Part shown: positions 21,135 to 49,488 of the stretch, piece by piece
Layout: every line of letters begins with the position of its first letter
How positions within the stretch are numbered: position 1 is the first letter of the stretch
NCBI GenBank assembly: GCA_043804895.1
Contig: JAZDIN010000025.1
Location: 36,764-100,763 of the forward strand
Source: Candidatus Altiarchaeota archaeon
GTDB taxonomy: Archaea > Altiarchaeota > Altiarchaeia > IMC4 > SCGC-AAA252-I15
Direction: 5' to 3'
DNA: 64,000 nt
Position numbers and translations under genes: made by a program
The notes under the pieces: model-generated
Seen by the model: only the letters and a program-made list of their open reading frames with translations
What the model was told of the DNA's origin: nothing
The model's database searches: none

Positions 21135-21213
21135 TGGACGAATGACTGTCCTCGCACGAAGACAACCCCCGGGAAGAATATTAAGGGATAATATACAAGT
21201 GTTGTGAAAGAAG

Positions 21214-22434: not shown

Positions 22435-22435
22435 C

Positions 22436-24219: not shown

Positions 24220-24225
24220 AAAAAC

Positions 24226-30775: not shown

Positions 30776-30855
30776 TGGTCTGCTAAGACTATTGTTAAGT
30801 AATATATTTATCCTCAATCCAACGGTTTTTAGCATACACTGACATAGCATAAACC

Positions 30856-31635: not shown

Positions 31636-31685
31636 TGCACCATGCTATCTCAGAGGTGTTACTCACAGGGCGCAGAAAAAAGGTT

Positions 31686-32405: not shown

Positions 32406-33526
32406 TTCTCGACGAGGTTCCTGTCCTCAAGCTCCTTCAGGGCATCTTGGCTTCTGTCTTCTGCCTCCTGTTTTGCGCCCCATTTCACCAGGTCTCTCAT
32501 CCCGTCCTCGAACTTCACGTTCGGTTTGAAGCCTATCTTCCTTATCTTAGTGATGTCAGCGTAGCAGTGCCTTATGTCGCCTGCCCGGTATTTGTTCTTG
32601 ATTTCAGGCTTGATTCTTTTGCCGTATAGCTTGGCAAATGTTTCGGCTATGTGCAACACAGTGACTGGTTTGCCTGTGCCGACGTTGAACATCTCATAAT
32701 CTGCCTTCCTGCTATCCAACACCAGCATGTTGGCTGCGACGATGTCCCTAACATCTATAAAGTCCCGGCTCTGCAGCCCGTCCTCATAGATGACTGGGGG
32801 GTTGTCGTTTTTTATATTGGATTGGAATATCGCGCACACTCCAGTGTATGGATTGGAAAGTGACTGCCTTGGGCCATATACGTTGAAATACCTCAAGGCA
32901 ACGGATGGTATGCCATATGCTTTCCCAACGGACAGGACCATCTCCTCCTGGTCGCGCTTGCTGACGGCGTAAACTGAAGTTGGCCTAAGCGGTTTATCCT
33001 CCGGTGTCGGGGTAGATATTGCCTCACAACCACAGCATGGGCATCTCATCTCCCACTCATGCGATTCAAGCTGCTTCTGCTGCCGGTAGTCTGGTATTAT
33101 CCTTCCACATTTGCTGCACTCGTACACGCCTTCACCGTATATGCTCATGGAACTTGCCACAACAATCTTTTTTATGTCGTATTCTCCATTCACTATCTCG
33201 TCGAGGAGAAGTCCAGTGCCCCTGCAATTGACGTCAACATAATAGTCTATGAGGTACATGGACTGGCCTACCCCGACAGCCGATGCTTCGTGGAAGACGA
33301 CATCAACATCTGATAAGGCGCGTTTTAGGTCGTCTCGGTTTCTAACGTCCCCCCCGATGAACTTGGCCTTCTGGTTCAAGTAATCTGGATTCTTCCGGTC
33401 TTTGCCATGGACTTGCGGGTCAAGGTTATCGAGTATCCTCACATCGTTTCCGCGTTTTATAAGTTCGTCGACTATGTGGCTTCCTATGAAGCCAGCGCCG
33501 CCAGTGACAAGAACAGAATGTTTCAT
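32402..33526 (-). CDS. NAD-dependent epimerase/dehydratase (SDR) with an inserted 4-Cys zinc ribbon
   Basis: MKHSVLVTGGAGFIGSHIVDEL; YAVSKRDQE (YxxxK). An insertion reads CSKCGRIIPDY...CPCCGCE. Confidence 0.6.
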   Translation of the reverse strand: MKHSVLVTGGAGFIGSHIVDELIKRGNDVRILDNLDPQVHGKDRKNPDYLNQKAKFIGGDVRNRDDLKRALSDVDVVFHEASAVGVGQSMYLIDYYVDVNCRGTGLLLDEIVNGEYDIKKIVVASSMSIYGEGVYECSKCGRIIPDYRQQKQLESHEWEMRCPCCGCEAISTPTPEDKPLRPTSVYAVSKRDQEEMVLSVGKAYGIPSVALRYFNVYGPRQSLSNPYTGVCAIFQSNIKNDNPPVIYEDGLQSRDFIDVRDIVAANMLVLDSRKADYEMFNVGTGKPVTVLHIAETFAKLYGKRIKPEIKNKYRAGDIRHCYADITKIRKIGFKPNVKFEDGMRDLVKWGAKQEAEDRSQDALKELEDRNLVEK

Positions 33527-33543
33527 ATTAGGGCTAATATTAT

Positions 33544-34485
33544 TTACTGGTTTTTATAAATGCCTTCCACCCACTCCACTGTCCCTTTGAGGCCGTCGTC
33601 GAACTTGACCTTAGGGGTCCAGTCCAACTCCCCCCTAGCCTTCGTAGTGTCCGAGGATGTGTGCTCTACGTCGCCTTTCTGGTCCTCTACGTACTTTATC
33701 CTCCCCTTACCCGTTAGTTCGATTATCCTCTCAGCCAACTCTTTCACTGTTATTGTCGTGCCTCCGCCTATGTTGTATGCGCCGCTACCCCTCGTCAAGG
33801 CAAGTGTCGTGGCCTCCACAGCGTCCGAGACATGGGTGAAGTCGCGGCTTTTGCTACCGTTCCCATAGACCTCCAATTCTCCGCCTGCAAGAGCCAACCT
33901 CGTGAACTTTGAAATCGCAAGGTCAGGCCTAATCCTCGGTCCGTACACGGTGAAATACCTCAGCGCAACATACTTCATACCATAAAGCTCCTCATAGACT
34001 CTGAAATAGTTTTCACATGCCAGTTTGCTGACACCATACGGTGATATTGGGGTTTTCGGGTGTTCCTCGTCGAAGGGCAGGTACTCGACCCTGCCGTATA
34101 CTGATGAAGAAGAAGCGAAGACAGTCTTTTTCACATCCGAATCCCGCGTTGCCTCAAGCAGGTTCAGCGTTCCCGTGACATTGACTTCGTTGGTTTTCAC
34201 AGGGTTGTCGACTGATGCCCTCACACCCGCTTGCGCAGCCTCATGAACCACGTAATCTGGTTCCTCCTGCGATACTACCCTCTTGAGCCTCTCCAAATCC
34301 CTTATATCTGCCTTAATCAGCTTGAACTCCCCAACTATAGGCCTGATGTTGTCTCTTTTTATTTTTTTGCTGTAGTAGTCGTCAAAGTTGTCAATGCAGG
34401 TCACATCATGCCCGTCTTTAACCAACCTCTCGCACAAGTGTGAACCTATGAAACCCGCCCCTCCAGTAACAAGAACCCTACTCAT
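33544..34485 (-). CDS. NAD-dependent nucleotide-sugar 4-epimerase (UDP-GlcA/UDP-Glc 4-epimerase-like SDR)
   Basis: MSRVLVTGGAGFIGSHLCERL; YGVSKLACE; 313 aa. Confidence 0.65.
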   Translation of the reverse strand: MSRVLVTGGAGFIGSHLCERLVKDGHDVTCIDNFDDYYSKKIKRDNIRPIVGEFKLIKADIRDLERLKRVVSQEEPDYVVHEAAQAGVRASVDNPVKTNEVNVTGTLNLLEATRDSDVKKTVFASSSSVYGRVEYLPFDEEHPKTPISPYGVSKLACENYFRVYEELYGMKYVALRYFTVYGPRIRPDLAISKFTRLALAGGELEVYGNGSKSRDFTHVSDAVEATTLALTRGSGAYNIGGGTTITVKELAERIIELTGKGRIKYVEDQKGDVEHTSSDTTKARGELDWTPKVKFDDGLKGTVEWVEGIYKNQ

Positions 34486-34572
34486 ACTACGTACTTATCT
34501 AATGCGAGCCTTTATAAGACCGCTTTATCCACATCCTAATTAACACGCCCTCAAATAACTACCTGAAGTTAG

Positions 34573-35637
34573 GTGTCCAAAACGAGTCTAATACGTCGGA
34601 TAACGCGGTTTATGGTGAATCTAAGGTATGTGCTGAAGGTTTGCAAGCCGCGACTCTATTTACGTCTGATAAAAACTTACATACTCATAGCCTTCGGCGC
34701 AAGACCGCTGCGTTACGTTGACTTCGCTCTTGATTACCGCTGCAACCTGAAGTGCGAGCACTGTTTCGCCACCGTATTGGAGAAGCCCAAGGGCGCTCGG
34801 AAGATGACACTCGAAGACTATCGCAGGGTCGCTGACGAGTGCATGAGTGAAGGGGCGATACAGTTCTCATTCCAAGGCGGCGAACCCCTCCTAATCAACA
34901 ACCTGGCCGAAATAATAGCATGCTTCAAACCAGACTGGAACCTAATCTCTGTGACAACGAACGGAACACTCCTCAACGAGGATAGGCTAAAATACCTCAA
35001 GAAGGCAGGAGTCGACATACTGACTGTGAGCCTCGACAGCGGCATACCCGATGAGCACGACTCATTCAGAGGCCTCAAAGGAGCATTCGACAAGACTGTC
35101 TCAGGCATAGAGCTAGCATTGAAATCAGGCTTGAAAGTAACTGTCGGGACAGTGGTCTCTCACAGCAACCTCCGCTCCGATGGACTTAGGAAGCTATTAG
35201 AATGGGCTAAGGGCAGGAAACTCCTAGTGACACTCGCACTGGCCGTTCCAGCGGGACGGTGGCTTGACAACAAGGGCATACTCCTGACAGAGCAGGACAT
35301 GACATATGTCCATAAGCTTTCGTCAGAAAGCCAGTTCATAACAACGGATATCGAAGCAAATTTCATATCATACGGGTGCGGGGCAGGGAAGGAGATACTT
35401 TACATCACCCCCTATGGTGATGTGTTCGTATGCCCGTTCATACACATAAGATTCGGCAACGTGTTCGAGGAGAGCATAAAGGCCATACGTGCAAGGGCGC
35501 TTAGGAACAAGTATCTAGACCACTACCACGACAAATGTCTCGCAGCACAGGACAGGGAATTCATCGAGAAATACCTCTCCAAGACGTTCGGACAAAAACA
35601 ACTACCACTAGACTACAAAGAAGTCTTCAGTGATTAA
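34573..35637 (+). CDS. radical SAM protein with a C-terminal Cys-rich (SPASM/twitch-like) domain
   Basis: DYRCNLKCEHC (CxxxCxxC); C-terminal YGCGAGKE...VCPF. Confidence 0.55.
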   Translation: MSKTSLIRRITRFMVNLRYVLKVCKPRLYLRLIKTYILIAFGARPLRYVDFALDYRCNLKCEHCFATVLEKPKGARKMTLEDYRRVADECMSEGAIQFSFQGGEPLLINNLAEIIACFKPDWNLISVTTNGTLLNEDRLKYLKKAGVDILTVSLDSGIPDEHDSFRGLKGAFDKTVSGIELALKSGLKVTVGTVVSHSNLRSDGLRKLLEWAKGRKLLVTLALAVPAGRWLDNKGILLTEQDMTYVHKLSSESQFITTDIEANFISYGCGAGKEILYITPYGDVFVCPFIHIRFGNVFEESIKAIRARALRNKYLDHYHDKCLAAQDREFIEKYLSKTFGQKQLPLDYKEVFSD

Positions 35638-36616
35638 CATGGCAAAGGTCTTCGTCACAGGCGCTTCAGGGTTCATCGGCTCAAACCTTGTTCGTAGGCT
35701 TGTTGAAGACGGCCATGACGTCTCTGCCATGATGAATAGGCACCCCTACCATCCACTTCTTGAAGGCGTAAAGTTCGAACGCGTTGTCGGAAACCTAACT
35801 GAGCCGACCTCCTTCAGGGAGGCTCTTGCAGGATGCGACACCGTCTACCACTGCGCTGCGTTGATAACGTTCCGCGGAGGCTACAATGAACCCTACAAGG
35901 TCAACGTCGAGGGGACCCGTAATATCCTGGATGTTTCATTGGGTGCTAGAGTAAGGAGGTTCGTGTTCACCAGCGCATGCGTCACCCTAGGCATATCAAA
36001 GTCGCCGGATGTCGTGCTTGACGAGTCCTCCAAATTTGCGCCGCCGAAGTCCTGGGTCTACGCTAACACGAAGCACTTGGCTGAAGAGATGGTGATGTCC
36101 TACTCAAAGAAAGGAATGGATACAGTCTCTTTGAACCCTTCCACAGTATACGGTGCCGGAGACCATTCCCTAAACAGCGGGTTCACAATAAAGAAGGTTG
36201 CTGAAGGTAAGGCAATTTTCGCACCACCAGGCGGAACAAGCTATGTCTCAGTCAACGACGTCGTAGATGCTCACATCCTAGCCATGAACAAGGGAGTGTC
36301 TGGTGAGCGTTACATAATCTCAAGAGAGAACCTCACATATAAAGAACTCTTCAACCGTATAGCCGACGCAGTCAAATCCACCCGGGTTAAGTATGTGTTG
36401 CCAAAAATACTACGATATCCTGCATACTATCCCATGGTTGCTATTGAACAACTCATAACTCCCCCAATTCCATCACGCCTAATTGATGAGCTTTTCATCT
36501 TCAAATACTATAACAACCAAAAGGCCGTCCGTGAGCTTGTTTGGGCTCCAAAAGAGGATTTAGGCGCAGCAGTGCTTGAAGCCGTAGAATATTACAGAAA
36601 GTACAATTTGTTTTGA
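35630..36616 (+). CDS. NAD-dependent epimerase/dehydratase (SDR, HpnA/dihydroflavonol-reductase-like)
   Basis: MAKVFVTGASGFIGSNLVRRL; YANTKHLAEE. Confidence 0.6.
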   Translation: MINMAKVFVTGASGFIGSNLVRRLVEDGHDVSAMMNRHPYHPLLEGVKFERVVGNLTEPTSFREALAGCDTVYHCAALITFRGGYNEPYKVNVEGTRNILDVSLGARVRRFVFTSACVTLGISKSPDVVLDESSKFAPPKSWVYANTKHLAEEMVMSYSKKGMDTVSLNPSTVYGAGDHSLNSGFTIKKVAEGKAIFAPPGGTSYVSVNDVVDAHILAMNKGVSGERYIISRENLTYKELFNRIADAVKSTRVKYVLPKILRYPAYYPMVAIEQLITPPIPSRLIDELFIFKYYNNQKAVRELVWAPKEDLGAAVLEAVEYYRKYNLF

Positions 36617-36620
36617 CTGA

Positions 36621-38036
36621 TTGAAATGGGGTGTTGGTATGTCTCTTAGGATATGTCTGGTGATGCCGAAGATAGATGACAACAACTTGACTCCGCCCCT
36701 TGGTCTCCTGTACATAGCCGCTGTGTTGGAAAAGGAAGGCCACACGGTAAAATACTTCGACGCCAGGATAGAAGGCGACGTCATAGGTAAGCTAAAGGAA
36801 TTCAGGCCTGATGTCCTCGGCGTTACAGCAGTCACTCCGTCTTTTCTTTCAGCTGTGGAGATAGCGGAAAACGCAAAGAAGGCACTGCCAAAATTAAAGG
36901 TAGTGTTTGGCGGGCCGCATCCCTCAGCCCTACCTAAGGAGACCCTTGAATCTGGGCCGGTAGACTTTGTTGTGATAGGCGAGGGGGAGTATCCGATGCG
37001 GGATCTCTGCAGGCTACTTGGGGAGGGCGAGGATCCTTCAACGGTCGCGAATCTAGCCTACATGAAAGACAGAAGATACGTGCGAAACGCCAGAGTCAGA
37101 ATACTCACCGAGGAGGAGTTGAATTCGCTACCCTTTCCAGCACTACACCTGCTTGATGTTGAGAGATACTTCACAGTGGACAAGTCGTATGGCGTGTTCC
37201 TCAAAGACCGCCGCAACCTGCCGATCATATCGAGCCGCGGATGCCCTAGTTCATGCACCTACTGTAGCAGGATGATGGGAGCAAAGTTCAGGGGTCGCAC
37301 TCCAGAGAGCGTATTAGCTGAGATGGAGCATCTAATCAGGGACTTCAATGTGGGGGAAATACACATAGTCGATGACAATTTCACCCATGACCGTTCGAGG
37401 GCGATGAGGATACTAGATGGCATAATAGAGAGGAAATTCAACATAGCAATAAAGTTCCCCAATGGTATGCGTGCCGACAGGACCGACCCGGAGCTCTTCA
37501 TGAAGATGAAGCTGGCCGGGGTGTACTCTATAGGATTCGGGATAGAATCTGGTTCTCCGAGGATTCTGGAGTTGATGAGAAAAGGTGTAAAAATAGAAAG
37601 GGTCGCCCAGGCCATAAGGGATGCGAAGGAAGCCGGCTTATTGGTCGGGGGGGCTTTCATCATAGGATACCCTGGAGAAAACAAGGAGAGCATACTGGAG
37701 ACCATAAAATTCGCAACAAGCGTGCCGCTTGACACGGCAAGCATAGTGACTATTGTCCCGATGCCTGGCACAGAAGTCAGGAGGATATGCGAGGAGGGGG
37801 GGTATCTTACCGAAGACGCCAAGGACTGGAGCAAATATTTATTCATTAGAAACCGTCCATACAAGCTATTCGAAACAGAGCATCTCAGCTTCGAGGACAT
37901 AAAGAAATACACTGACTTGTTCCACAAGCGATTCTATATGCGTCCAACATACGTTTTGAGGATGCTTAAGGTGCTGAACATAACCCAGATAATAAGGGGT
38001 GTGAAGACCGTATTCTTTCCCTTCCTTGACCATTAA
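36621..38036 (+). CDS. class B (B12-binding domain) radical SAM enzyme, copy 1
   Basis: N-terminal cobalamin-binding Rossmann-like domain (LRICLVMPK...LGLLYIAAVL...VVFGGPHPSALP) followed by SRGCPSSCTYCS, a radical-SAM motif. Confidence 0.65.
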   Translation: MKWGVGMSLRICLVMPKIDDNNLTPPLGLLYIAAVLEKEGHTVKYFDARIEGDVIGKLKEFRPDVLGVTAVTPSFLSAVEIAENAKKALPKLKVVFGGPHPSALPKETLESGPVDFVVIGEGEYPMRDLCRLLGEGEDPSTVANLAYMKDRRYVRNARVRILTEEELNSLPFPALHLLDVERYFTVDKSYGVFLKDRRNLPIISSRGCPSSCTYCSRMMGAKFRGRTPESVLAEMEHLIRDFNVGEIHIVDDNFTHDRSRAMRILDGIIERKFNIAIKFPNGMRADRTDPELFMKMKLAGVYSIGFGIESGSPRILELMRKGVKIERVAQAIRDAKEAGLLVGGAFIIGYPGENKESILETIKFATSVPLDTASIVTIVPMPGTEVRRICEEGGYLTEDAKDWSKYLFIRNRPYKLFETEHLSFEDIKKYTDLFHKRFYMRPTYVLRMLKVLNITQIIRGVKTVFFPFLDH

Positions 38037-38080
38037 ACCGGTGCTACTGGAATATTATATGTCAAACAATATGTCTTAAG

Positions 38081-38827
38081 ATGGCAACAGCCGACGACGT
38101 AAAGGATGCGAACAGGCGATTTTTCGACTTAGCAGCCGACGTCTACGAGGGTGTTGACAAACGGCGTGGCGATAAGGTTAGCAGATGGCTTGACGACGGC
38201 ATAGGTGAGTTGAGTAAGAGAGCTACTGGTGGCGCGTTACTCGACATCGGATGCGGGACGGGATTTGTGATGCGAAAGTCAAATGGCAAGTTCAACCTCA
38301 TAGTCGGCGTTGACATAAGCCCGAACATGCTAAAGCAGACTAATGTCGGTTATCCTGTCTGCGCTGACACCGATTACCTCCCATTCAAGGGCGGAGTCTT
38401 CGATGCCGCGGCGTCTGTGGCTGTGCTACATCACATACTCGACCACAAGTCTATGTTCCAAGAAGCGCAGAGGGTCCTCAGGAAAGGTGGTGTATTCTAC
38501 AGCGACCATGACATAGACTCCGAGTTCGTTAAAAAGTTCGGCTGGCTTGTAAGGTTGAGGCGGAGATTCTGCGACAATAGCATAGCCTATCTCAGGGCTA
38601 AAAAAGACCTCACCAAGGAACTGTATGAGAAATCAGAGATACACCACGACGGAGTTGACTCCCCTCTGCTCAAGACTCAACTCCAAGATGCAGGATTCTC
38701 AAAAGTGAAAGTCAGATACCACTGGCTCGGCCTAAACACAGCCCTGAATGTTATACTATCACTTCCCCCCCTCAAATATCTGCCTCACGGATTCGCACCG
38801 AACGCATCATTTTGGGCTGTAAAATGA
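38081..38827 (+). CDS. class I SAM-dependent methyltransferase (type 11)
   Basis: LLDIGCGTGFVMRK...VGVDIS; FDAAASVAVLHH. Confidence 0.6.
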   Translation: MATADDVKDANRRFFDLAADVYEGVDKRRGDKVSRWLDDGIGELSKRATGGALLDIGCGTGFVMRKSNGKFNLIVGVDISPNMLKQTNVGYPVCADTDYLPFKGGVFDAAASVAVLHHILDHKSMFQEAQRVLRKGGVFYSDHDIDSEFVKKFGWLVRLRRRFCDNSIAYLRAKKDLTKELYEKSEIHHDGVDSPLLKTQLQDAGFSKVKVRYHWLGLNTALNVILSLPPLKYLPHGFAPNASFWAVK

Positions 38828-40251
38828 AGATACTCCTCATTAACCCGCCGAACTACCACATAGCCAAATCCTCCTCAGGCTGGGACATGGAAATAGACAA
38901 CATCGGACTTTACCCCCCCATCGGCCTCATGTACATCGCTGCATACATGAGGAAGAACACAGACTATGAAATCAGGATTCTTGACACGCTAGTTGACAGA
39001 TTAAGCTACGATGAGATAGGCGAACACGCCAGAAAATACAACCCAAACCTTGTGGGAGTAACCTCCTTCACCCTAACATTCTACGACGTTATGGAAACCA
39101 TCAAATCCGTACGGAAGGCCTGCCCGGGGGCGCACATAAACGTCGGAGGCCCACACACTTTCCTCTGGTGGGAGGATACGATCAAGAAACCAGAAGTAGA
39201 TTCAGTGCTCCTGGGTGAAGGTGAAGTTTCCTTCACCCAGCTTGCAGAAACGCTTGAAAGAAAAGGCGAACTGAAGGGTGTTAAAGGTATTGTACTTAAG
39301 GATGGCGACAAAATCATAAAGACCGGGAACGGTGAACTAATCAGGAATCTTGATGAACTGCCTTTCCCAGCATTTGATCTGGTCCCGTATAAGAGGTACA
39401 ACTCCATCAATTCACGCGAAAAATCACTGGCAGTCATATTCAGCTCTAGGGGGTGTCCATTCCAATGCACATACTGCGACAAGACCAACTTCCTCTACAG
39501 GGGCAGGAGCGTCGAGAACATACTGGATGAGATGCAACAGTACTATTCTGCCGGAATCCGCGAGTTCCTCTTCTTCGACGACCTGTTCAACATAAACCCC
39601 AAAAAGGTCATCGACGTCTCGGAGGGGATAATGCGCCGCGGATTCAAGATACGCTGGACGTTCAGGGCTAGGGTGGACCAGGTCACAGACGAAATGGTGA
39701 AGGCAGCGAAAAAATCAGGGTGCACCCTAATATCATTCGGGGTCGAAGACTGCACAGACGAAGGCCTGCGGATGATAAAAAAGGGGATAACGACAGAGCA
39801 GGTACTGGAGGCGGTCGAGACTGCCAAAAAGCATGGCCTTGAGACGAGCACCAACTGGATTATTGGCCTCCCACGGCACAAGAGCGAGAAGGATGTGATG
39901 GAGCTTTTGGATTTCGCGAAGAAGGTCGATTCCACATATGCTGAATTCACCATACTAGTGCCCTATTACGGCACGCAAATATACTGGGAGGGTATAACGA
40001 AGGGGGTTATCAAGGCCGGCATATGGGAGGGTTTCGTTAGGAGTCCACAACCAGACTTCCTCCTGCCCATGTGGGAAGAACACCTAAGTCGTGAAAAACT
40101 AAGCGAACTATATCACAAATGCTACAAAGGCTACTACTGGAGGTCGAAATACGTGCTAAAAAGCCTCCTTAACACAAAAAACCTCAACGAACTATGCAAG
40201 AAAGCAATCGCAGCCATGAAGATACTGGGTGTGGCGTCAAAGAAAAAATGA
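38812..40251 (+). CDS. class B (B12-binding) radical SAM enzyme, copy 2
   Basis: MKILLINPP...IGLMYIAAYM...VGGPHTF B12 domain; SRGCPFQCTYCDK radical-SAM motif. Confidence 0.65.
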   Translation: MGCKMKILLINPPNYHIAKSSSGWDMEIDNIGLYPPIGLMYIAAYMRKNTDYEIRILDTLVDRLSYDEIGEHARKYNPNLVGVTSFTLTFYDVMETIKSVRKACPGAHINVGGPHTFLWWEDTIKKPEVDSVLLGEGEVSFTQLAETLERKGELKGVKGIVLKDGDKIIKTGNGELIRNLDELPFPAFDLVPYKRYNSINSREKSLAVIFSSRGCPFQCTYCDKTNFLYRGRSVENILDEMQQYYSAGIREFLFFDDLFNINPKKVIDVSEGIMRRGFKIRWTFRARVDQVTDEMVKAAKKSGCTLISFGVEDCTDEGLRMIKKGITTEQVLEAVETAKKHGLETSTNWIIGLPRHKSEKDVMELLDFAKKVDSTYAEFTILVPYYGTQIYWEGITKGVIKAGIWEGFVRSPQPDFLLPMWEEHLSREKLSELYHKCYKGYYWRSKYVLKSLLNTKNLNELCKKAIAAMKILGVASKKK

Positions 40252-41201
40252 TAAAGAAAAAATACCTTGCATTAGTGAGCGTAGCACTAATACTCATAAT
40301 AATCTACTCGAGCAATCCTTCATCTCTGGTCGAGAATATACTTAAGATTAAGGTTGAAGTCCTACCCAAACTTGCCGCCCTCCTTATCATCTCGATTTTC
40401 TTGAGGACATTAAAGTGGCAGTTTGTCTTGAACAAAACAAAAAGGGTCTCGTTTGCATCGCTCCTCCCCGTTAACCTATCTGGTGTGCTTTTGCGCGATA
40501 CACTGCCTGCAAAGGTCGGTGAGCCACTTAAGGCGTTGCTTTTGAAGGATATCTTCAGCATACCAATCTCCAAGGGTATAGTATCTGTGGTGTGGGATCG
40601 ACTCATTGACTTCATAGCGCTTGCATCGCTTACAGTCCTGTTTCTCGCATTAACTCTGGGAAATTTTGGAAGTAGCGGTGTCTTAGCAGGGTTGGGTGGA
40701 ATTGCAATCGTACTTATTGCATGCGTTGTGGCCGTTTTCGGGCTGATTGATAAGAAAGTCGGAGCCATAGTCATAAAACCCTTCTCAAAAACCCTGTTCT
40801 TCAGGAGGTTTCTTACTGTAGATGCGGTGGATTCATTTTATTCGACCAGCGTAGGATTGACTAATGTTGTAATCAACTACATATTAACTCTTTTTTCAGT
40901 ATGTGTGGAGGGCCTTATGTTCTATGTTGTGTTATTGTCGATGGGTGTTAACATTAATCCACTATACGTTGTATCTGCCTTTTCCTTCTCTGTAATCTGT
41001 GGTTCTGTCAGTTTCCTCCCAGCAGGCATAGGTTCACTTGAGGCGGTCTTCATATTGTCTCTGATGTACGACGGCGTAAACCAAAGTCAGGCTGCTGCTT
41101 GCATAATATCTGTCCGGTCATTCAGCATACTATCAATGTATCTACTTGGACTTCTATCCTCCACAGTATGTATAAAAAAAGGCTCCAGCTTAGAATCCTA
41201 G
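40248..41201 (+). CDS. lysylphosphatidylglycerol-synthase-TM-like (flippase-like) membrane protein
   Basis: MIKKKYLALVSVALILII... with about 8 TM helices and the UPF0104/LPG_synthase_TM-type pattern often fused to GT2 enzymes. The start was chosen at ATG 40248. Confidence 0.45.
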   Translation: MIKKKYLALVSVALILIIIYSSNPSSLVENILKIKVEVLPKLAALLIISIFLRTLKWQFVLNKTKRVSFASLLPVNLSGVLLRDTLPAKVGEPLKALLLKDIFSIPISKGIVSVVWDRLIDFIALASLTVLFLALTLGNFGSSGVLAGLGGIAIVLIACVVAVFGLIDKKVGAIVIKPFSKTLFFRRFLTVDAVDSFYSTSVGLTNVVINYILTLFSVCVEGLMFYVVLLSMGVNINPLYVVSAFSFSVICGSVSFLPAGIGSLEAVFILSLMYDGVNQSQAAACIISVRSFSILSMYLLGLLSSTVCIKKGSSLES

Positions 41202-42182
41202 CTTCTCCTTCAAGATTAAGATAATGCCCTCAACCATGCCAACACCCATGGCTAGGCTTCTGTATATCATGAGTGGGAATACTAGGAGTGTCTCAGTTTT
41301 TTGAAATTTCTTAGATATTGTTATAGTGTAGTTGAGCATGAGCGCCAGGTAGAAGATGAGAAGGAGGATATATGGTGTGGTTAGTTGTGGCTCTACTACT
41401 ACTGGCAACAGACTTAAAATAAGAACCCACACGAGCGGCGGTGTTATCATTAGCGTCGGATTCGCCAAGTTGTCTCCTTTGATGCCGTGCGGGTGTTTTA
41501 TAAGTATCTGGAACCTGGACTTTGAGGTTTGGGATTGCTGCCTCCAGTATGATTTAAGGCCCGCCCTGTGGTAATGCCAGACCCTTGCTTTAGGGTTGAA
41601 TTCTATCTTGTAGCCTGCCTCGTTGACCCTGTATCCTATGTCTACGTCGTAGCCTGTCCTGAACTGAGTGTCATAGCCCCCAACCTCTTCAAGTACTTTC
41701 CTCCTGTATGCTAGGTTGCTGTCCTGCGGCGAGAGGATGTATCTTGGGTATCTTGAGTATCTGTATTCCAGCTCGTATCCTATTAGTCTCTGGAGGATGT
41801 TCATACCATCCGGCGTTATCACATTCCCCGTGGCTCCGCCCACCGCGGAATCCTGGAAGGGCTTTAGTATCTCAGTCAGCCAGTCTTTCGCGACGACGCA
41901 GTCTGCATTGGTCACCGCAACCAAATCGGACTTAGCGGCCTTCCACCCGATGTTGATTGCGTTTCCAGCCCCGAGGACGCCACCCCCCTTCAGTATCGTC
42001 GTCTCTATCCTAAGGTGTTCCCTCTTGAACTTTCTCATAATCTCGAAAGTCTTGTCTGTGCTGCCGTCATCAATCAGAATCAATTCGAACCCATCTGGGA
42101 ATTCCAACTCGGCTATCGACTTAAGGCACATCTCTAATGTGTCTTGCCCGTTCTTGCATGGTATCACAATGCTTGCCTTCAC
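41190..42182 (-). CDS. GT2-family glycosyltransferase with C-terminal TM helices
   Basis: MKASIVIPCKNGQDTLEMCLKSI...LILIDDGSTDKT; about 4 C-terminal TM helices. Confidence 0.7.
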   Translation of the reverse strand: MKASIVIPCKNGQDTLEMCLKSIAELEFPDGFELILIDDGSTDKTFEIMRKFKREHLRIETTILKGGGVLGAGNAINIGWKAAKSDLVAVTNADCVVAKDWLTEILKPFQDSAVGGATGNVITPDGMNILQRLIGYELEYRYSRYPRYILSPQDSNLAYRRKVLEEVGGYDTQFRTGYDVDIGYRVNEAGYKIEFNPKARVWHYHRAGLKSYWRQQSQTSKSRFQILIKHPHGIKGDNLANPTLMITPPLVWVLILSLLPVVVEPQLTTPYILLLIFYLALMLNYTITISKKFQKTETLLVFPLMIYRSLAMGVGMVEGIILILKEKLGF

Positions 42183-43084
42183 TTAAGCTGCCTCCTGATA
42201 AGCTGGTCTAAGAGTATGTTCTGGCTTCTTATGGAGTGTAGTATAAGGCCGATTGCTATGAACTGTATGCCAAGGATTATGAAGGAGAGGGATGCGATTA
42301 GGCTGAGCATCATCATCTGGCTGTATGGAGTCGACGTCAGTGAGAGAATCGATATTATGAGGCCAATTGTGAGGGACACTATCGACAGTATCGAGAACAG
42401 GAACATCGGCCTATAGTCCCTCAACAGGGTTATTATCGTCCATAGTATTATGAAGCCGTCACTGAAGGAGTCGAGCTTGGATTCGCTACCTTTCGGGCGG
42501 GACCTGTATCTTATCGGAACCTCCTTTATTCTGAAATTCTCTATTAGGGTCCTTATCGTCAGTTCAGTCTCTATCTCAAAGCCACTTGATATAAGGTTAA
42601 GGTGTTTGGCAAGGTTCCGGTTCAACACCCTGTATCCAGAGAGCACGTCCTCAAGTTTCATGCCGAAGGAAGTGTTTATCATGGTGACTATAGCCCAGTT
42701 GCCAAAGACATGGAGCCTCTTCATCGAATCCGATTCCTTGTCCCCAATCCTTGAGCCTACTGTCATGTCACATTCGCCGTCCAAGACTGGCTTTAGAAGA
42801 TTCTTAACGTCCTCTGCAGGGTACGTGTCGTCCCCGTCAACAAATACGTAGTAGTCTGCATCGATGTTGTCAAGGGCGGATTTCATCACGAAACCCTTGC
42901 CTCTGCGCGTTTCAGTCAGGACCTTGGCCCCGGCTTTCTTTGCAGCCTCCACAGTCCCATCGGTTGAGTTGTTGTTGTAGACTATTATGTCGGCGTCTGG
43001 AATCTCCCTCCTGAAATCCTTCACCACCTTTCCTATACTCTTCTCCTCGTTCAAGGCCGGGATTATTACTGCTGTCCTCACCAT
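42179..43084 (-). CDS. GT2-family polyprenyl-phosphate glycosyltransferase (Dpm1/GtrB-like) with C-terminal TM helices
   Basis: MVRTAVIIPALNEEKSIGKVV...IIVYNNNSTDGT...FVDGDDTY. The start was set at ATG 43084; the 43216 extension overlaps the upstream gene. Confidence 0.7.
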   Translation of the reverse strand: MVRTAVIIPALNEEKSIGKVVKDFRREIPDADIIVYNNNSTDGTVEAAKKAGAKVLTETRRGKGFVMKSALDNIDADYYVFVDGDDTYPAEDVKNLLKPVLDGECDMTVGSRIGDKESDSMKRLHVFGNWAIVTMINTSFGMKLEDVLSGYRVLNRNLAKHLNLISSGFEIETELTIRTLIENFRIKEVPIRYRSRPKGSESKLDSFSDGFIILWTIITLLRDYRPMFLFSILSIVSLTIGLIISILSLTSTPYSQMMMLSLIASLSFIILGIQFIAIGLILHSIRSQNILLDQLIRRQLK

Positions 43085-44463
43085 TTTTTCCAAAACATCG
43101 CAGGCAACGCATACCTTGCCGCACTCAAAATGTGCTCCAATTCCCCGGGGTTCCTGAGGGTCCTCAGCATATACTTGGGTCTCAGGTAATAAGACCTGAC
43201 GCCCCTTTTCGCCCACTCCCTGATTTCCTCGTTGCTCATGTGCGGGTAGCTAACTTCGCCGTTTTTTAGGCAGCCTCTTGAATTGAGCTCCGCATACATC
43301 GGGGCTGCCTTCGTGATTACTGGTATTGAGTACTGTATTGTCTCCACGTCAAGCGAATTAGCCCAATTTACCGTGTTTTTTATCGTCTCCTCCGTCTCTC
43401 CTGGCAGTCCGACTACGAAGTCTGCGTGTATCTCAAGGCCAGCTTTTTTAGCGTCTTTCGTGAACCTCTCCATAGTCTCCCTTGTAATGCCTTTCCTTAT
43501 GTTTTTCAGTATCGTCGGGTCAGCGGATTCATACCCTACATGCAACACCCTACATCCCGCCTTCTTCATCTTCTCCATCGTCTCAAGCTTCAGGTCGCCT
43601 TTGGCGTAGCAGCCCCATGTCACATCCAGCTTTTGCCTTATCACCTCCTCAGAAATCTCATCAGCCCACCATCCTGGCAGCATGTCATCTTGGAAGAACT
43701 GCTCCTTAATCTGCGGGAGGTTCTCCTTCACCCATCTCATCTCCTCCACGACATTGCTGGCGCTCCTGTGCCTGTACACTCCGGCCTCAGTTAGGGTGTT
43801 AACCCACAGGCAGAAGGTGCACATACCCCACACGCACCCGCGGCCTGTGAACATGTCAATGAACGGGTGCTTTTGCGCCACGACATGGTAGTTCCTGAAG
43901 TCCAGGTTCCTGCTGTAGAATTCGGTCACGAATGGGAAACTGTCTAAGTCTCCCTCAGGAATAGGAGGCCTCGGCTTGTTCTTAACGATTTTTCCGTTCC
44001 TCCTCCACATCAACCCCTCGATTTCAGCCGAGTTTTTGCCTGCAGCCAGGTCCCGTATGGTGTAGTCGAACTCACCGTATGCGACGTAGTCTATCTCATC
44101 AGAGGAGTTCATGACAGCGTCCGTGTCAATCGTAACCCAAGGGCCTGCGTAGACGATTCTCGAGCCAGTCTGCGACTTTATCTCATCGGCCAGTTTGGAG
44201 TCGTCTTTGAGGCTTCTCGTCGAACTATACAGTAGCGTCAAATCAGGCGATAACTTCTTAGCCTTCTCAAGTACCTGTTCAGGCGTCAGGTTCTCTGGTG
44301 GGGCGTCGACAAGCTTGACATTATGTCCCTCACGTTCAAGCAGGGCTCCGCAGTATCCGAGCCATATGGGGTACCATTGCGTGCCTGAGATTGACACTCC
44401 TTCACATCGCGCGTTCCGCATGAAATACTTCACGTACGGCGGATTCAGTAACAAGACATCCAT
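43078..44463 (-). CDS. class B (B12-binding) radical SAM enzyme, copy 3
   Basis: MDVLLLNPPYVKY...YPIWLGYCGALL B12 domain; GRGCVWGMCTFCLW radical-SAM motif. Confidence 0.65.
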   Translation of the reverse strand: MDVLLLNPPYVKYFMRNARCEGVSISGTQWYPIWLGYCGALLEREGHNVKLVDAPPENLTPEQVLEKAKKLSPDLTLLYSSTRSLKDDSKLADEIKSQTGSRIVYAGPWVTIDTDAVMNSSDEIDYVAYGEFDYTIRDLAAGKNSAEIEGLMWRRNGKIVKNKPRPPIPEGDLDSFPFVTEFYSRNLDFRNYHVVAQKHPFIDMFTGRGCVWGMCTFCLWVNTLTEAGVYRHRSASNVVEEMRWVKENLPQIKEQFFQDDMLPGWWADEISEEVIRQKLDVTWGCYAKGDLKLETMEKMKKAGCRVLHVGYESADPTILKNIRKGITRETMERFTKDAKKAGLEIHADFVVGLPGETEETIKNTVNWANSLDVETIQYSIPVITKAAPMYAELNSRGCLKNGEVSYPHMSNEEIREWAKRGVRSYYLRPKYMLRTLRNPGELEHILSAARYALPAMFWKKW

Positions 44464-44555
44464 TGCTGTTCATCTCATGTTTGCCAGCATTTATCCCCTA
44501 CCCTTGCTGTCGTACTCTATGTATGGCTTTATCCCCTTAAAGCGGTCGCATACTC

Positions 44556-45275
44556 TCATCTTAACCTTAGGATTTTGGCAACCCTTGAAAGGAACCCTAA
44601 GGCGAGGACTCTCGAATATCCTGGGCCTATGTTCATGTAGTTGAGCTTTGACTTTCCCTGCCTGCGGTCGACGTAGCTGATGGGTATCTCGCCTATTCTA
44701 TAACCTTCTATCGTGGCTTTCACCACAAGTTCGGAGTGTATCTCAGGCCCCGTTGACTTCAGATTCAGGGATTCGAACGTTTTTTTGTGGAATCCCCTGT
44801 AGCCGCTTGTTATGTCAGCCACTTTGACACTGATGAGCGCTCTGGAGACTATGTTGTAGGTGCCTGATATAACATTCCTTGTGGTCCCCCTCTTGAGGTT
44901 ACCCCCGCTCATGAACCTTGAACCAACTACCACATCATGCTCCTTCAAACTATTAACGAAGTTTGCTATCTCCTTTGGGTCATGGCTTAGGTCAGCATCC
45001 ATGAAAACCACCAATTCGTTTGATGCAACGCCGACACCCTCCCTGAGTGCATTGCCGAGGCCATTTCTGACCTCTCTAGCAAGCACTTTAACATTCCCGT
45101 ATACGGAGTTCATCTTCCGCGCCAGTTCTGGTGTCCCATCAGTTGATAAGTCGTCCACGACAATAACCTCACCATGTAAGCCTGCAGCATCGAAAATCCT
45201 CTCTACCCTTGGTATCAGCTCTTTTATGTTTTCAGCCTCGTTTATGGTCGGTATAACAACTGAAACTGAGTCCAT
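44556..45275 (-). CDS. GT2-family glycosyltransferase (dolichyl/polyprenyl-phosphate hexosyltransferase-like)
   Basis: MDSVSVVIPTINEAENIKELI...VIVVDDLSTDGT...FMDADLSHDP is a DPM-synthase-like signature. Confidence 0.75.
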   Translation of the reverse strand: MDSVSVVIPTINEAENIKELIPRVERIFDAAGLHGEVIVVDDLSTDGTPELARKMNSVYGNVKVLAREVRNGLGNALREGVGVASNELVVFMDADLSHDPKEIANFVNSLKEHDVVVGSRFMSGGNLKRGTTRNVISGTYNIVSRALISVKVADITSGYRGFHKKTFESLNLKSTGPEIHSELVVKATIEGYRIGEIPISYVDRRQGKSKLNYMNIGPGYSRVLALGFLSRVAKILRLR

Positions 45276-45279: not shown

Positions 45280-46242
45280 TCAACCGCCAGCCTCCTTTAT
45301 CCTCCCTAACCCCTCTGCCATACTGGTTTTTGGTTTCCAACCTAATGCGCAGAGTTTTGTGTTGTCTGAGCGTATATCCTTACTCTCCTTCCTCAACTTA
45401 GCTGAATCCAGATTAACCTCTGGTCTGCGTCCGTATAATCCAGCCGCTGTCTTAACAACGTCGCCTAATTGCATGCTTTTTCCGCCGCCGACGTTGAAGA
45501 TGTTTAATCCCCTGACTCGTTTTTCTATGAGTATCATGTATGCGTCCACTAGGTCGTCTACGTATAGAAAGTCCCTCTTAACTGTGATGTTTCCCAACTT
45601 GAGTTTATTGCCTTCTGAAAGCTGATTTAAAAGTGTGGGTATGAAAAAGTCGCCCGCCTGTCCTGGCCCGTAGATATTAAACTGTCGAAGTATTATGAAA
45701 AATCCTCCCCGTTCCTCGTGGAATACTCTTATTAGGTCTTCAGCAGCCTTTTTAGACCTACCGTAGCTGTTCGTCGGATTTGTTGGGTGTTTTTCGTCAA
45801 CAGGCAGATACTTCGGTTCACCATAAACCTTCGAGGATGATGCGAAGATGTAATTCGCATTCTCGCACTTGGTATGGAACTTAAGCGTATTGTATGTTCC
45901 AATGACGTTTATATCGTACGTCTTAAGCAAATCTTCCTCTGCTTCGGGTATAAATGAAATTCCTGCAAGATGCACGACACAGTCTATGTCCAAGGGCAGG
46001 CTCCTGAAACTCCGGAAGTCCGATACATCAACACTGTGGTGTTCCACACCTGCCAATCCGGCACGCTTGATGTCGGCGCCGACAACTGCATACCCGCCCT
46101 CGACAAGGCGTTTGCACAGGTTGGCTCCTATGAATCCAGAGTAGCCGGTGACCAGAATGTTACCAGTCAATCCTACCCCACCATTTATCCTTGTTTTCTG
46201 CGTAGTATTTGATGGTCTCCTTAACACTTTCCCTTCTGTCAT
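45280..46242 (-). CDS. NAD-dependent SDR (GDP-4-keto-6-deoxy-sugar reductase/epimerase, Rmd/DmhB-like); start uncertain
   Basis: ILVTGYSGFIGANLCKRL; YGRSKKAAE. The track start is 83 nt inside the upstream gene; a TTG near 46170 is a more plausible start. Confidence 0.55.
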   Translation of the reverse strand: MTEGKVLRRPSNTTQKTRINGGVGLTGNILVTGYSGFIGANLCKRLVEGGYAVVGADIKRAGLAGVEHHSVDVSDFRSFRSLPLDIDCVVHLAGISFIPEAEEDLLKTYDINVIGTYNTLKFHTKCENANYIFASSSKVYGEPKYLPVDEKHPTNPTNSYGRSKKAAEDLIRVFHEERGGFFIILRQFNIYGPGQAGDFFIPTLLNQLSEGNKLKLGNITVKRDFLYVDDLVDAYMILIEKRVRGLNIFNVGGGKSMQLGDVVKTAAGLYGRRPEVNLDSAKLRKESKDIRSDNTKLCALGWKPKTSMAEGLGRIKEAGG

Positions 46243-47230: not shown

Positions 47231-47384
47231 AACCAAGATATTATTTTCCCCCGTTAAAATATAGCGGATAGGGAATACTTTGGAATTTCGGTTTTCCCTA
47301 TCCAATATATCTAATAATCCTGGGGTTTGGTGAATTCTATTCTATGAAAGTTTAATTCTCAGGATTATTCGCTATAGCCAAAGT

Positions 47385-48774: not shown

Positions 48775-48830
48775 TTTTATGGTTAATGCATATAATTAGT
48801 GGAATATATTCGGTTTTGAGGTGGTTTCAG

Positions 48831-49487: not shown

Positions 49488-49488
49488 G

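Follow-up and report, generated by a model that had tools for sequence, protein, structure and literature searches.

A surface-glycan island of ~46 kb (about 3.6 to 50 kb) was found in the 64,000-nucleotide stretch of an Altiarchaeota metagenome-assembled genome (MAG) analysed here (hereafter the window), which is archaeal in content and encodes GINS51, the RFC small subunit and an archaeal flagellin. Within this island lies a block of genes, A to I (positions 34573-44463; Table 1), that brings together four radical S-adenosylmethionine (SAM) enzymes, three of which (C, E and I) possess an N-terminal B12-binding domain, the fourth (A) being of the twitch/SPASM type. The same block encodes one class I SAM-dependent methyltransferase (D), one short-chain dehydrogenase/reductase (SDR; B), one flippase-like protein of the LPG_synthase_TM family (F) and two membrane-anchored family 2 glycosyltransferases (GT2; G and H). 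Class-B radical SAM enzymes constitute a very large family with very few known functions. We lean, though not strongly, towards seeing in the block the core of a conserved, modular cassette which radically rebuilds a membrane-anchored sugar before its export to the surface; it would thereby tie three class-B radical SAM enzymes and a twitch radical SAM enzyme to the tailoring of membrane-anchored sugars.

All four radical SAM proteins match PF04055 above the gathering threshold, and C, E and I do so for the B12-binding domain PF02310 as well, which gives them the class B domain architecture. The cluster motifs are located at ~34.74 kb in A (CNLKCEHC), ~37.24 kb in C (CPSSCTYC), ~39.45 kb in E (CPFQCTYC) and ~43.84 kb in I (CVWGMCTFC). 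An earlier note on this DNA had placed four radical SAM proteins at 34.7, 37.2, 39.4 and 43.8 kb, three of them with N-terminal cobalamin-binding domains, next to a flippase-like LPG-synthase-TM protein and two GT2s anchored by transmembrane (TM) segments, and all of this is confirmed. It had also assigned the spacing CxxxCxxC to all four enzymes, which holds for A, C and E but not for I, where the motif is Cx4Cx2C. Of the SAM methyltransferases that it listed, only D falls inside the block, a second one being found at 30856-31635; instead of the two SDRs claimed there is one (B), and the others flank the block (32402-33526, 33544-34485, 45280-46242 and 46160-47305).

The block is made up of two convergent operons, A-F on the plus strand and G-J on the minus strand. 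Plus-strand genes overlap or are separated by at most 44 bp, and the spacing across the block ranges from -139 to +92 bp; the apparent long overlaps vanish because the probable ATG starts of H, F, E and C (43084, 40248, 38824 and 36639, respectively) lie inside the open reading frames (ORFs). The start chosen for H would overlap the stop of I by 7 nt, and those chosen for C and E agree with the NCBI protein lengths. Only two gaps exceed 50 bp, one of 87 bp upstream of A and one of 92 bp between I and J (44464-44555). The former contains a TTTATAA element and is the predicted promoter of the plus-strand operon. J is separated by 4 bp from the SDR gene at 45280-46242, and the two half-transporter genes at the head of the minus-strand operon overlap each other and the adjacent GT2 gene (48094-48774) by 4 bp; gene overlaps of 4 bp are a typical sign of translational coupling. 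The minus-strand operon thus begins at 48774, beyond the block, and the functional unit delimited by the earlier note is too small.

Table 1. Genes and other features of the radical SAM block and its immediate surroundings in the window.
Feature	Coordinates	Strand	Basis
Intergenic region, divergent, 5' of the plus-strand operon; TTTATAA TATA-like element	34486..34572	.	
A: radical SAM, twitch/SPASM-type C-terminal domain (3 Cys)	34573..35637	+	Pfam
B: extended SDR, HpnA/3-beta-HSD/OleD type; probable start ATG 35639	35630..36616	+	NCBIfam
C: B12-binding-domain radical SAM; probable start ATG 36639; 465 aa per NCBI	36621..38036	+	Pfam
D: class I SAM-dependent methyltransferase	38081..38827	+	Pfam Methyltransf_11
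E: B12-binding-domain radical SAM; probable start ATG 38824; 475 aa per NCBI	38812..40251	+	Pfam
F: polytopic LPG_synthase_TM/flippase-like membrane protein; probable start ATG 40248	40194..41201	+	Pfam, NCBIfam
G: membrane-anchored GT2, GT-A domain and ~3 C-terminal TM helices, MftF-like	41190..42182	-	Pfam, NCBIfam
H: AglJ/dolichyl-phosphate-hexose-synthase-like GT2, 2 C-terminal TM helices; probable start ATG 43084	42179..43216	-	
I: HpnJ-sister B12-binding-domain radical SAM, Cx4Cx2C cluster motif	43078..44463	-	NCBIfam, alignment
J: soluble AglJ/Dol-P-hexose-synthase-like GT2, in the minus-strand operon with G-I	44556..45275	-	
Two NDP-sugar-type SDRs (45280-46242 and 46160-47305), same minus-strand operon	45280..47305	-	
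Head of the minus-strand operon: GT2 (48094-48774) and two 4-TM EamA-like half-transporters (47729-48097, 47385-47732)	47385..48774	-	
Left flank: DUF6798 membrane protein, PMT_2 (GT-C), class I methyltransferase, GT2, two NDP-sugar SDRs	27143..34485	.	Pfam

Such a concentration of radical SAM genes is far beyond chance. A published account of Sulfolobus acidocaldarius gives 18 PF04055 genes in about 2.2 Mb (~0.08 per 10 kb), and at that density the Poisson probability of at least four radical SAM genes in a given 10 kb is estimated at ~2e-6. Housekeeping roles for the four enzymes were considered and rejected, as none reaches any NCBIfam equivalog cutoff, those of the heme, MoaA, tRNA and coproporphyrinogen families included; the grouping with housekeeping families that the earlier note had named as a possible refutation was not observed, and orthologues in relatives again reside in glycan clusters. 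The same combination of genes also recurs in unrelated genomes (see below). The block is supported as a real functional unit and not a chance grouping of housekeeping radical SAM genes.

The closest characterised relative of enzyme I (PF04055, 79 bits; PF02310, 50.5 bits) is HpnJ of the hopanoid pathway. Its score on the NCBIfam model TIGR03471 (HpnJ) is 373.9 bits (cutoff 577.6), with BchE next at 116 bits; on models of phosphonate methylases and of those acting on RiPPs (peptides made by the ribosome and modified after translation) it stays at or below 93 bits, and on HpnR it reaches 41 bits. A genuine HpnJ (Mycetohabitans; Burkholderiaceae megaplasmids) aligns to residues 1-437 of the 461 of I with 35% identity and 269 bits. 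This full-length homology supports the idea that I works like HpnJ, not that it belongs to the HpnJ family. In a published survey HpnJ domains were present only in genomes with squalene-hopene cyclase and HpnH; neither of these, nor HpnI or HpnK, was found among the window ORFs scanned with Pfam and NCBIfam.

The cluster motif sets I apart as a member of a distinct clade, closest to HpnJ. HpnJ carries GCRS[RK]CTFC, i.e. Cx3Cx2C, and C and E likewise have the canonical CX3CX2C, whereas I has a one-residue insertion (CX4CX2C) that is conserved over its clade: the pattern C-x-W/Y-G/N-x-C-x-F/Y-C was present in all 120 of the 120 best database matches of I (44-53% identity). An alignment-anchored analysis recovered the Cx4 insertion in every tested sequence at least 41% identical to I. 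Clustering by the unweighted pair group method with arithmetic mean (UPGMA) placed I among 28-30 members, 26-28 of them with Cx4, with HpnJ and a relative from Lawsonia outside; a few divergent Cx4-spaced sequences fall outside the core cluster. Judging from these alignments, Cx4Cx2C appears near-diagnostic of the clade, with exceptions. Since the three cysteines are retained, binding of a [4Fe-4S] cluster by I is plausible. The AlphaFold2 model of I (pLDDT 88.3, pTM 0.89) has a class-B radical SAM fold, as far as a predicted structure can tell, and its best Foldseek matches are TsrM, MgmA, CysS, OxsB, AprD4 and TokK (E 1e-21 to 1e-16, TM 0.6-0.72), a fold that does not separate a methylase from a rearrangement enzyme.

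The distribution of the clade was assessed by scanning 185,579 species-representative genomes with clade-specific peptide patterns, a procedure which defines the Cx4Cx2C clade and excludes wider HpnJ relatives. Members were detected in 78 species genomes, 63 bacterial and 15 archaeal, all of them MAGs or single-amplified genomes. The bacterial carriers belong to Planctomycetota/Phycisphaerae, Omnitrophota, Patescibacteria, Dehalococcoidia, Acidobacteriota, Myxococcota and others, and the archaeal ones to Altiarchaeota, Aenigmatarchaeota, Bathyarchaeia, ANME-1, Woesearchaeota and Methanosarcinales. In a library of representatives at 50% identity, ~10 clusters carried the motif, with 1,278 more at E ≤1e-30 corresponding to HpnJ and other relatives. 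The clade is therefore widespread, not hyper-diverse.

The HpnJ-family relative from Lawsonia intracellularis, a pig pathogen, is encoded on plasmid 1 (NC_008012, 27 kb; positions 5151-18745), is 33% identical to both I and HpnJ, and has the Cx3Cx2C spacing. Its neighbours encode GT2s, DUF2304 proteins, a SIS domain protein, five class I methyltransferases and a second radical SAM enzyme, as well as heptose-type HAD-IIIA and GHMP kinase proteins and proteins with DUF2142 and DUF6077; this locus could be a tractable cousin of the cassette. Separately, six giant proteins of 1,500-2,300 aa (P0140, P0177, P0204, P0201, P0244 and P0247) contain 3-4 stretches matching the HpnJ-like query and appear to be candidate tandem multi-module B12-binding radical SAM polyproteins.

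Around the clade members, the partners of the block recur, as the check for co-occurrence proposed in the earlier note now bears out. We typed the neighbours in 81 non-redundant loci against the window proteins by BLAST and iterated hidden Markov models; the counts are lower bounds, many of the contigs being short. The most constant neighbour is a GT2 best matching G, adjacent to the I orthologue in 31 of the 81 loci and within 5 kb in 57. C-type B12-binding radical SAM enzymes are adjacent in 18 loci (32 within 5 kb), D-type methyltransferases in 15 (36), A-type SPASM radical SAM enzymes in 10 (25), H-type GT2s in 5 (21) and B-type (HpnA-type) SDRs in 1 (14). An unbiased Pfam census of neighbours (216 ORFs, 26 diverse loci) was concordant: GT2s numbered 34, radical SAM proteins 31 (17 of them carrying a B12-binding domain and at least 4 a SPASM domain), class I methyltransferases 20 and SDRs 11, while PMT_2 and LPG_synthase_TM proteins came to at least 7 and at least 4, respectively; no lipid-core or peptide-maturation family was among the top 25 of either census batch. 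PMT_2 accounted for 7 of the 111 neighbour ORFs of the first batch. Of the 54 loci having at least 10 kb of flank, 38 encode a large polytopic protein (≥400 aa, ≥8 TM segments). A single conserved GT-C partner was nevertheless rejected: these polytopic proteins fall into many small unrelated families, mostly without a Pfam match, and one is a K+ transporter.

Individual loci follow this arrangement. In one of them (L001) the order is two GT2s, an LPG_synthase_TM protein, two B12-binding radical SAM enzymes, an SDR (46% identity), a methyltransferase (45%), a 151-aa gene without a Pfam match, I (52%) and a further B12-binding radical SAM enzyme. In an Omnitrophota locus (L032) a single co-directional series comprises A (52%), C (46%), an E-type enzyme, a SPASM protein, B (42%), D (39%) and I (44%), and in Saganbacteria (L004) two GT2s are followed by a C-type B12-binding radical SAM enzyme fused to a class I methyltransferase, and then by I. 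Searches seeded with C and E retrieve the same cassettes. Two contigs are even denser in radical SAM genes than the block: L087 (JGI 3300045411, 12.9 kb), where orthologues of C (70% identity), E (67%) and I (47%) are joined by five further radical SAM genes (8 of its 11 genes), and L090 (ENA ERZ24794679, 9.8 kb; 7 of 9 genes), where I (49%) lies directly upstream of E (57%) and overlaps its start. These two contigs also have in common a run of a SPASM radical SAM enzyme, two radical SAM enzymes of ~350 aa and a 189-aa protein without a Pfam match, divergent from the I/E orthologues. Up to four different B12-binding radical SAM enzymes occur per cassette (L001, L083 and L087). Taken together, the block combines three recurring sub-modules, namely [GT2 + I], [A + C, optionally joined by B and D] and [E].

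The remaining enzymes of the plus-strand operon could be placed at the family level. A (PF04055, 84 bits) was described previously as a SPASM/twitch enzyme: it does match SPASM PF13186 (29 bits, cutoff 21.5), but having only 3 Cys after residue 260 it is a twitch/MoaA-like variant and not a full 7-Cys SPASM protein, the auxiliary-cluster pattern being 7 Cys for SPASM and 3-4 for twitch. Its best NCBIfam matches are AhbD (108 bits) and MoaA (97 bits), no equivalog cutoff being reached; the closest solved chain is that of the sugar-acting radical SAM enzyme BlsE (7VOB, 53 bits), and orthologues of 48-57% identity occur in L002, L013, L032, L059, L067 and L088. C (PF02310, 96 bits; PF04055, 92 bits) scores best on HpnJ (190.6 bits), Sden_1168 (181) and BchE (161), all far below cutoff, and its closest solved chain is the B12-dependent C-methylase MgmA/QCMT (9CCB, 77 bits); orthologues share 70% identity in L087 and L089 and 47% in L088, there beside the A orthologue. 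E (PF04055, 89 bits; PF02310, 65 bits) scores best on BchE (186 bits), HpnJ (160.5) and HpnR (128), again below cutoffs, with AprD4 (73.5 bits) and MgmA (62 bits) as closest solved chains and orthologues at 67% (L087), 57% (L090) and 44% identity, the last in the cultured Solidesulfovibrio fructosivorans JJ (AECZ01000015; L086, 10001-11485). D (Methyltransf_11, 74 bits) matches no NCBIfam equivalog and has orthologues of 39-45% identity in L001, L013, L031, L032, L057, L059 and L067. That C, E and I are all methylases or C-C-bond-forming enzymes would be a family-level prediction, and they may use cobalamin, a trait with no diagnostic sequence motif; AprD4 and ArsL homologues possess the B12-binding domain yet leave cobalamin unbound.

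SPASM/twitch radical SAM enzymes and B12-binding C-methylases are typical RiPP maturases, so that operon A-E might be thought a RiPP maturation cassette merely located in a glycan island; C indeed scores 146 bits on ApyD and 124.5 bits on a RiPP C-methyltransferase subfamily, and A 88.5 bits on AlbA. All of these values, however, are far below the respective cutoffs, every ORF of at least 25 aa between 34.5 and 44.6 kb overlaps a large gene (the gaps are ≤92 bp), the block has no protease or ABC exporter, and what recurs beside the enzymes are GT2s, SDRs and flippase-like proteins. We regard this explanation as highly improbable.

The SDR B belongs, judging from its scores, to the lipid-acting HpnA/SdmB/OleD branch (HpnA 185, SdmB 156, OleD 128 and GalE 68 bits; orthologues of 42-46% identity in L001, L057, L059, L032 and L078), while all flanking SDRs show the reverse pattern, with 150-200 bits on LegB/GalE/RmlB and 42-72 bits on HpnA, and are of the NDP-sugar type. 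The presence of a lipid-acting SDR, the scores of E on HpnR and on a ladderane-associated family of lipid radical SAM enzymes (107 bits), and the fact that GrsA, GrsB and Gmm are archaeal B12-domain radical SAM enzymes would fit a modification of the hydrocarbon of membrane lipids or of the polyprenol carrier, in the manner of GrsA/GrsB, Gmm or HpnP/HpnR. Against this, carriers of the clade are mostly bacteria (63 of 78), which make no isoprenoid tetraethers, and the neighbours are overwhelmingly glycosyltransferases and sugar enzymes, with no family of lipid-core biosynthesis in the census; such a role is very unlikely.

Membrane and glycosyltransferase partners complete the picture. F matches PF03706 with 127 bits and passes the 'flippase-like domain' model TIGR00374 (83 bits, cutoff 43); it has ~8 hydrophobic segments, and its Pfam family is also represented in L001, L012, L023, L027 and L047. 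G (PF00535, 94 bits, plus PF13641 and PF13632; TM segments at residues 241-324) scores 143 bits on MftF (cutoff 280) and 39 bits on HpnI (cutoff 310). For H (TM segments at residues 269-331) the closest family is AglJ (TIGR04182, 252.5 bits), yet it stays below the equivalog cutoff of 325; the Dol-P hexose transferase family follows at 104.5 and PpgS at 72 bits. J, which lacks a TM segment, matches PF00535 (103 bits), AglJ (112) and PpgS (75). The adjoining SDRs (GDP_Man_Dehyd and Epimerase; 45280-46242 and 46160-47305) score 200 and 147 bits on a LegB-type 4,6-dehydratase and 156 and 105 bits on RmlB, respectively. At the head of the operon, the GT2 (PF00535, 125 bits) reaches 54 bits on an ArnC-family model and 77 bits on AglJ, and is followed by small proteins of 115 and 122 aa with 4 hydrophobic segments each, one of which (47385-47732) has weak EamA and TMEM234 matches; their layout resembles that of the undecaprenyl-P-sugar flippase ArnE/ArnF, and a flippase role would be in keeping with it. 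Thus, at the level of families, one locus has every part of a three-component polyprenyl-phosphate-sugar system: H, J and the products of 31686-32405 and 48094-48774 as GT2 synthase-like proteins, F and the two EamA-like proteins as candidate flippases, and a GT-C protein (PMT_2, 28994-30916).

On the reading we favour, H, J and G would attach one or more hexoses at the cytoplasmic face to a carrier that would be dolichyl phosphate, a membrane lipid or a glycan alcohol, the flanking NDP-sugar SDRs supplying the nucleotide sugars. I would then abstract a hydrogen from the lipid-linked sugar and cause a skeletal rearrangement; the analogy to HpnJ and calditol synthase points most of all to the pyranose being contracted to a five-membered cyclitol (carbasugar). 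C and E would add C-methyl groups or carry out further radical steps (C-methylation is assigned to C because MgmA is its closest solved chain), A and B could perform a combined radical and redox step such as deoxygenation, epimerisation or oxidation, and D would O-methylate. Finally, F would move the product outward, where it might stay as a glycolipid head group or pass to a GT-C enzyme such as the PMT_2 protein. The left flank (27143-34485) likely serves the same pathway. We infer every substrate and reaction of this scheme, the lipid-linked intermediate from gene context; rearrangement of a membrane-anchored hexose by I is suggested by its similarity to HpnJ, its linkage to membrane GT2s and the flippase-like gene.

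Among known systems, a close one is the hopanoid module HpnI-HpnJ-HpnK(-HpnL), by which bacteriohopanetetrol glucosamine is turned into the cyclitol ether. On a Mycetohabitans megaplasmid it forms an operon of hpnI (a GT2), hpnJ, hpnK and an 'HpnL'-type LPG_synthase_TM gene, and the block has the family triad in common with it: GT2 (G/H), an HpnJ-type radical SAM enzyme (I) and an LPG_synthase_TM protein (F). I and HpnJ are of the same subfamily of B12-domain radical SAM enzymes, the best NCBIfam match of B is HpnA, and the substrate logic, inferred for the block, would be the same, with a lipid-bound alcohol glycosylated and its sugar then remodelled radically. Both HpnJ, on knockout evidence, and Cds (Saci_1489 of S. 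acidocaldarius), according to the literature, take a hexose that is already attached to the lipid and contract its ring through radical chemistry to a five-membered cyclitol. Unlike the hopanoid module, the block has an archaeal host and no squalene-hopene cyclase, HpnH, HpnG or HpnK; I does not reach the HpnJ cutoff, and its motif is Cx4Cx2C where HpnJ has Cx3Cx2C; its GT2 and LPG_synthase_TM partners are not orthologues of HpnI or HpnL; and two more B12-binding radical SAM enzymes, a twitch radical SAM enzyme and a methyltransferase are added. The resemblance in the triad therefore supports, at the level of families, a module that works like the hopanoid operon without belonging to it.

Cds is itself an archaeal radical SAM enzyme, for which the published description proposes contraction of a lipid-linked glucose to an ether-linked cyclopentane polyol head group, a product isomeric with the hexosyl lipid; our comparison of Cds with I relies on that description. 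According to the literature its homologues occur mainly in acidophiles, whereas the clade of I is found in uncultivated lineages, mostly candidate phyla, Planctomycetota and DPANN archaea, and Cds is not described as part of a cassette with several radical SAM enzymes. What is new here is the enzyme clade, its host range across both domains and the added chemistry, while the kind of process, tailoring of a lipid-linked sugar as by HpnIJK and Cds, would be a known one. The earlier suggestion of a sugar-derived carbocycle gains specific support from the proximity of I to HpnJ (374 bits, against 116 for BchE), its chemistry staying a prediction from homology. That the whole Cx4Cx2C clade is a pan-domain 'cyclitol synthase', turning lipid-linked hexoses into ether-linked, further C-methylated carbocyclic pseudo-sugars, we hold to be a tentative and rather doubtful extension.

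A number of observations weigh against a radical rearrangement of lipid-linked sugar. The evidence for the HpnJ reaction itself is a knockout, and I as an HpnJ equivalog was rejected, its score being under the cutoff and its cluster motif different. No HpnK-type deacetylase is near I; G and a second GT2 type beside I are MftF-like or PgaC/NodC-like, with 36-39 bits on HpnI; and F matches the hopanoid LPG_synthase_TM protein at E = 0.04 only. The large polytopic proteins near I are heterogeneous, and a hand-off to GT-C enzymes is accordingly not conserved. In L088 and S. fructosivorans JJ, relatives of A, C and E lie in a nucleotide-sugar setting where I is missing, all 78 clade genomes are uncultured, and the C-methylases Fom3 and MoeK5 group with HpnJ in sequence-similarity networks, methylation by I being a serious alternative. 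Orthology of G to HpnI (21% identity at E = 1e-5) and of F to HpnL (E = 0.04) was likewise rejected, as was an HpnI-like nature of the second GT2 architecture beside I orthologues (PgaC/NodC-like, ≤36 bits on HpnI).

If C, E and I were all methylcobalamin-dependent C-methyltransferases of the MoeK5/Fom3/GenK/MgmA kind, the cassette would be one of pure C-methylation or branching and, with D, would yield a poly-methylated sugar and no carbocycle. Most characterised class-B radical SAM enzymes are methylases, C is closest to one of them (MgmA, 77 bits), a review reports co-clustering of Fom3 and MoeK5 with HpnJ at stringent network thresholds, and the substrate that MoeK5 methylates is a sugar linked to lipid; the automatic annotation of one clade member reads '2-hydroxyethylphosphonate methyltransferase', and ring contraction by HpnJ was never demonstrated in vitro. 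The scores of I nevertheless favour HpnJ (374 bits) over phosphonate and RiPP methylases (≤93) and HpnR (41), and up to four different B12-binding radical SAM enzymes per cassette are more than iterative methylation normally requires. MoeK5, Fom3, GenK and MgmA/QCMT share the class-B architecture with the block enzymes, MgmA, which modifies protein, being the closest structure to C and MoeK5 acting on a sugar linked to lipid-phosphoglycerate, but no equivalog threshold is reached, and the cassettes lie in primary surface-glycan islands and not in antibiotic clusters. This explanation is, in our view, serious but less likely than not.

The radical SAM, SDR and methyltransferase genes may instead act on soluble nucleotide sugars, the GT2s transferring finished sugars, in which case the products would be unusual deoxy- or branched sugars and nothing would be altered while lipid-linked. 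In L088, which has no I orthologue, a GT2, A (51%) and C (47%) precede NDP-sugar branching enzymes, with SDRs, E1/transketolase-like genes, an aldo-keto reductase and an RmlC-like isomerase. The glycan island of S. fructosivorans JJ, also without I, has the E orthologue (44%) among DegT, hexapeptide acetyltransferase, AsnB, SIS and split-transketolase genes (the last at 41-43% identity). The window itself encodes NDP-sugar pathways, with CDP-glucose synthase and GmhA above cutoffs and many NDP-sugar SDRs, and BlsE, the closest structure to A, acts on a nucleoside-sugar. On the other hand, no partner is tied to I more strongly than the membrane-anchored GT2s, which adjoin it in 31 of 81 loci, HpnJ as its nearest characterised relative has a glycolipid for substrate, B falls in the lipid-acting branch of SDRs and outside the NDP-sugar one, and the radical SAM operon ends with a flippase-like protein. 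As a general account we think action on soluble sugars improbable, if less so than most alternatives; because of the contexts in L088 and S. fructosivorans it may still hold for at least the A, C and E steps even if wrong for I.

AprD4/AprD3 of apramycin biosynthesis, a radical SAM diol dehydratase with an SDR-type reductase that deoxygenate a sugar at C3', follow the logic proposed here for A and B. AprD4 is the best solved-structure match of E (73.5 bits), which scores 87 bits on the AprD4 family against a cutoff of 500; AprD4 does not bind cobalamin, and its substrate is a free pseudodisaccharide. With Haloferax-type Agl pathways (AglJ, AglG, AglD, AglP) the block shares AglJ/Dol-P-hexose-synthase-like GT2s (H, J and 48094-48774) and a link to the AglD-type membrane domain, and with the three-component polyprenyl-P-sugar systems GtrA/B/C, ArnC/E/F/T and PpgS/Rv3632/Rv3779 the EamA-like subunits and PMT_2 GT-C protein; a SAM methyltransferase is common to the block and to Agl/Gtr/Arn-type systems. 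None of the described Agl or Gtr/Arn pathways includes radical SAM enzymes; unlike in Agl, H is below the AglJ cutoff and no STT3/AglB is encoded in the window. The claim that this is no described archaeal Agl pathway thus stands, the best match being that of H to AglJ (252.5 against 325 bits). A literature search revealed no publication describing the clade or the cassette, and nothing relevant was found in literature on the biosynthesis of carbocyclic sugars (bradyrhizose) and on archaeal cyclitol ethers. As a whole, the earlier interpretation finds partial support: it is right in that the block exists, is conserved and undescribed and goes with glycan genes, whereas its specific chemistry is a hypothesis.

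The clade signature and the conserved partner genes make the chemistry testable, and S. fructosivorans JJ (E orthologue) and L. intracellularis plasmid 1 (HpnJ-family relative) offer cultured entry points. If I makes a carbocycle, many uncultivated bacteria and archaea would have surface lipids or glycans with cyclitol ethers, among them CPR and DPANN lineages that retain this costly kit in spite of their reduced genomes, and chemistry of the calditol and bacteriohopanetetrol-cyclitol type would extend far outside Sulfolobales and hopanoid producers. Should the Cds/HpnJ mechanism apply, the unmethylated product would be isomeric with a hexosyl lipid; such head groups could hide among '1G'-type lipids in mass-spectrometric surveys and be acid-stable potential biomarkers. 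Questions of membrane and cell-surface stability, the interpretation of environmental lipidomics and the evolutionary origin of the hopanoid side-chain genes would all be affected.

The surrounding island contains a GT4-family initiating transferase, several GT4s, a Wzx-like flippase, two AsnB-like amidotransferases, the PMT_2 (GT-C) and DUF6798 membrane proteins, a CDP-glucose pathway with an NDP-hexose C-methyltransferase, a split transketolase around a fifth, MiaB-like radical SAM gene, and a GDP-heptose pathway divided between both ends. The GC content of the block (0.46-0.50) is inside the range of the window (0.44-0.54), and composition gives no support to a recent horizontal transfer of the block. 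Just left of the island are a tRNA-Gly(GCC) gene (3557-3630, minus strand) and a Cas4/PD-(D/E)XK nuclease-like gene (1382-2161, plus strand); the tRNA could mark an integration site, although GC shows no sign of recent transfer. Outside the island, three plus-strand ORFs (52989-53975, 54016-55500 and 57185-58165; 328, 494 and 326 aa) gave no Pfam match at E ≤1e-4.

A separate branched-sugar cassette is located at 19306-26357 (plus strand). It encodes a glucose-1-P cytidylyltransferase above cutoff (334 bits), a CDP-glucose 4,6-dehydratase-like SDR, an epimerase, an NDP-hexose C-methyltransferase (Methyltransf_13/14) and the split transketolase (23362-24219 and 25443-26357), a homologue of which (41-43% identity) adjoins SPASM radical SAM genes in S. 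fructosivorans JJ. Between the transketolase halves lies the fifth radical SAM gene (24226-25446), MiaB/RimO-like with 176 bits against a cutoff of 251 and with a UPF0004 domain; a methylthiotransferase-like radical SAM enzyme within a sugar pathway is unusual. The GDP-glycero-manno-heptose-type pathway is apparently split over the island ends (3662-4966, minus; 7129-8139, plus; 48747-50046, plus): one end has an NTP-transferase::HAD fusion that resembles HddC+GmhB by its domains and an HddA-like kinase (214 bits, below cutoff), and the other has GmhA above cutoff (212 bits) beside a transaldolase. One sugar that the block tailors could be heptose. The paralogous AsnB-type glutamine amidotransferases (11952-13847 and 16270-18144, both minus), a homologue of which in the S. 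fructosivorans island is 34-35% identical, suggest amidated uronic or acetamidino sugars. Lastly, the 374-aa SDR at 32402-33526 (minus) matches Epimerase/GalE in two stretches (residues ~5-133 and 171-353), which implies an insertion of ~40 residues in the middle of its predicted Rossmann/substrate domain.

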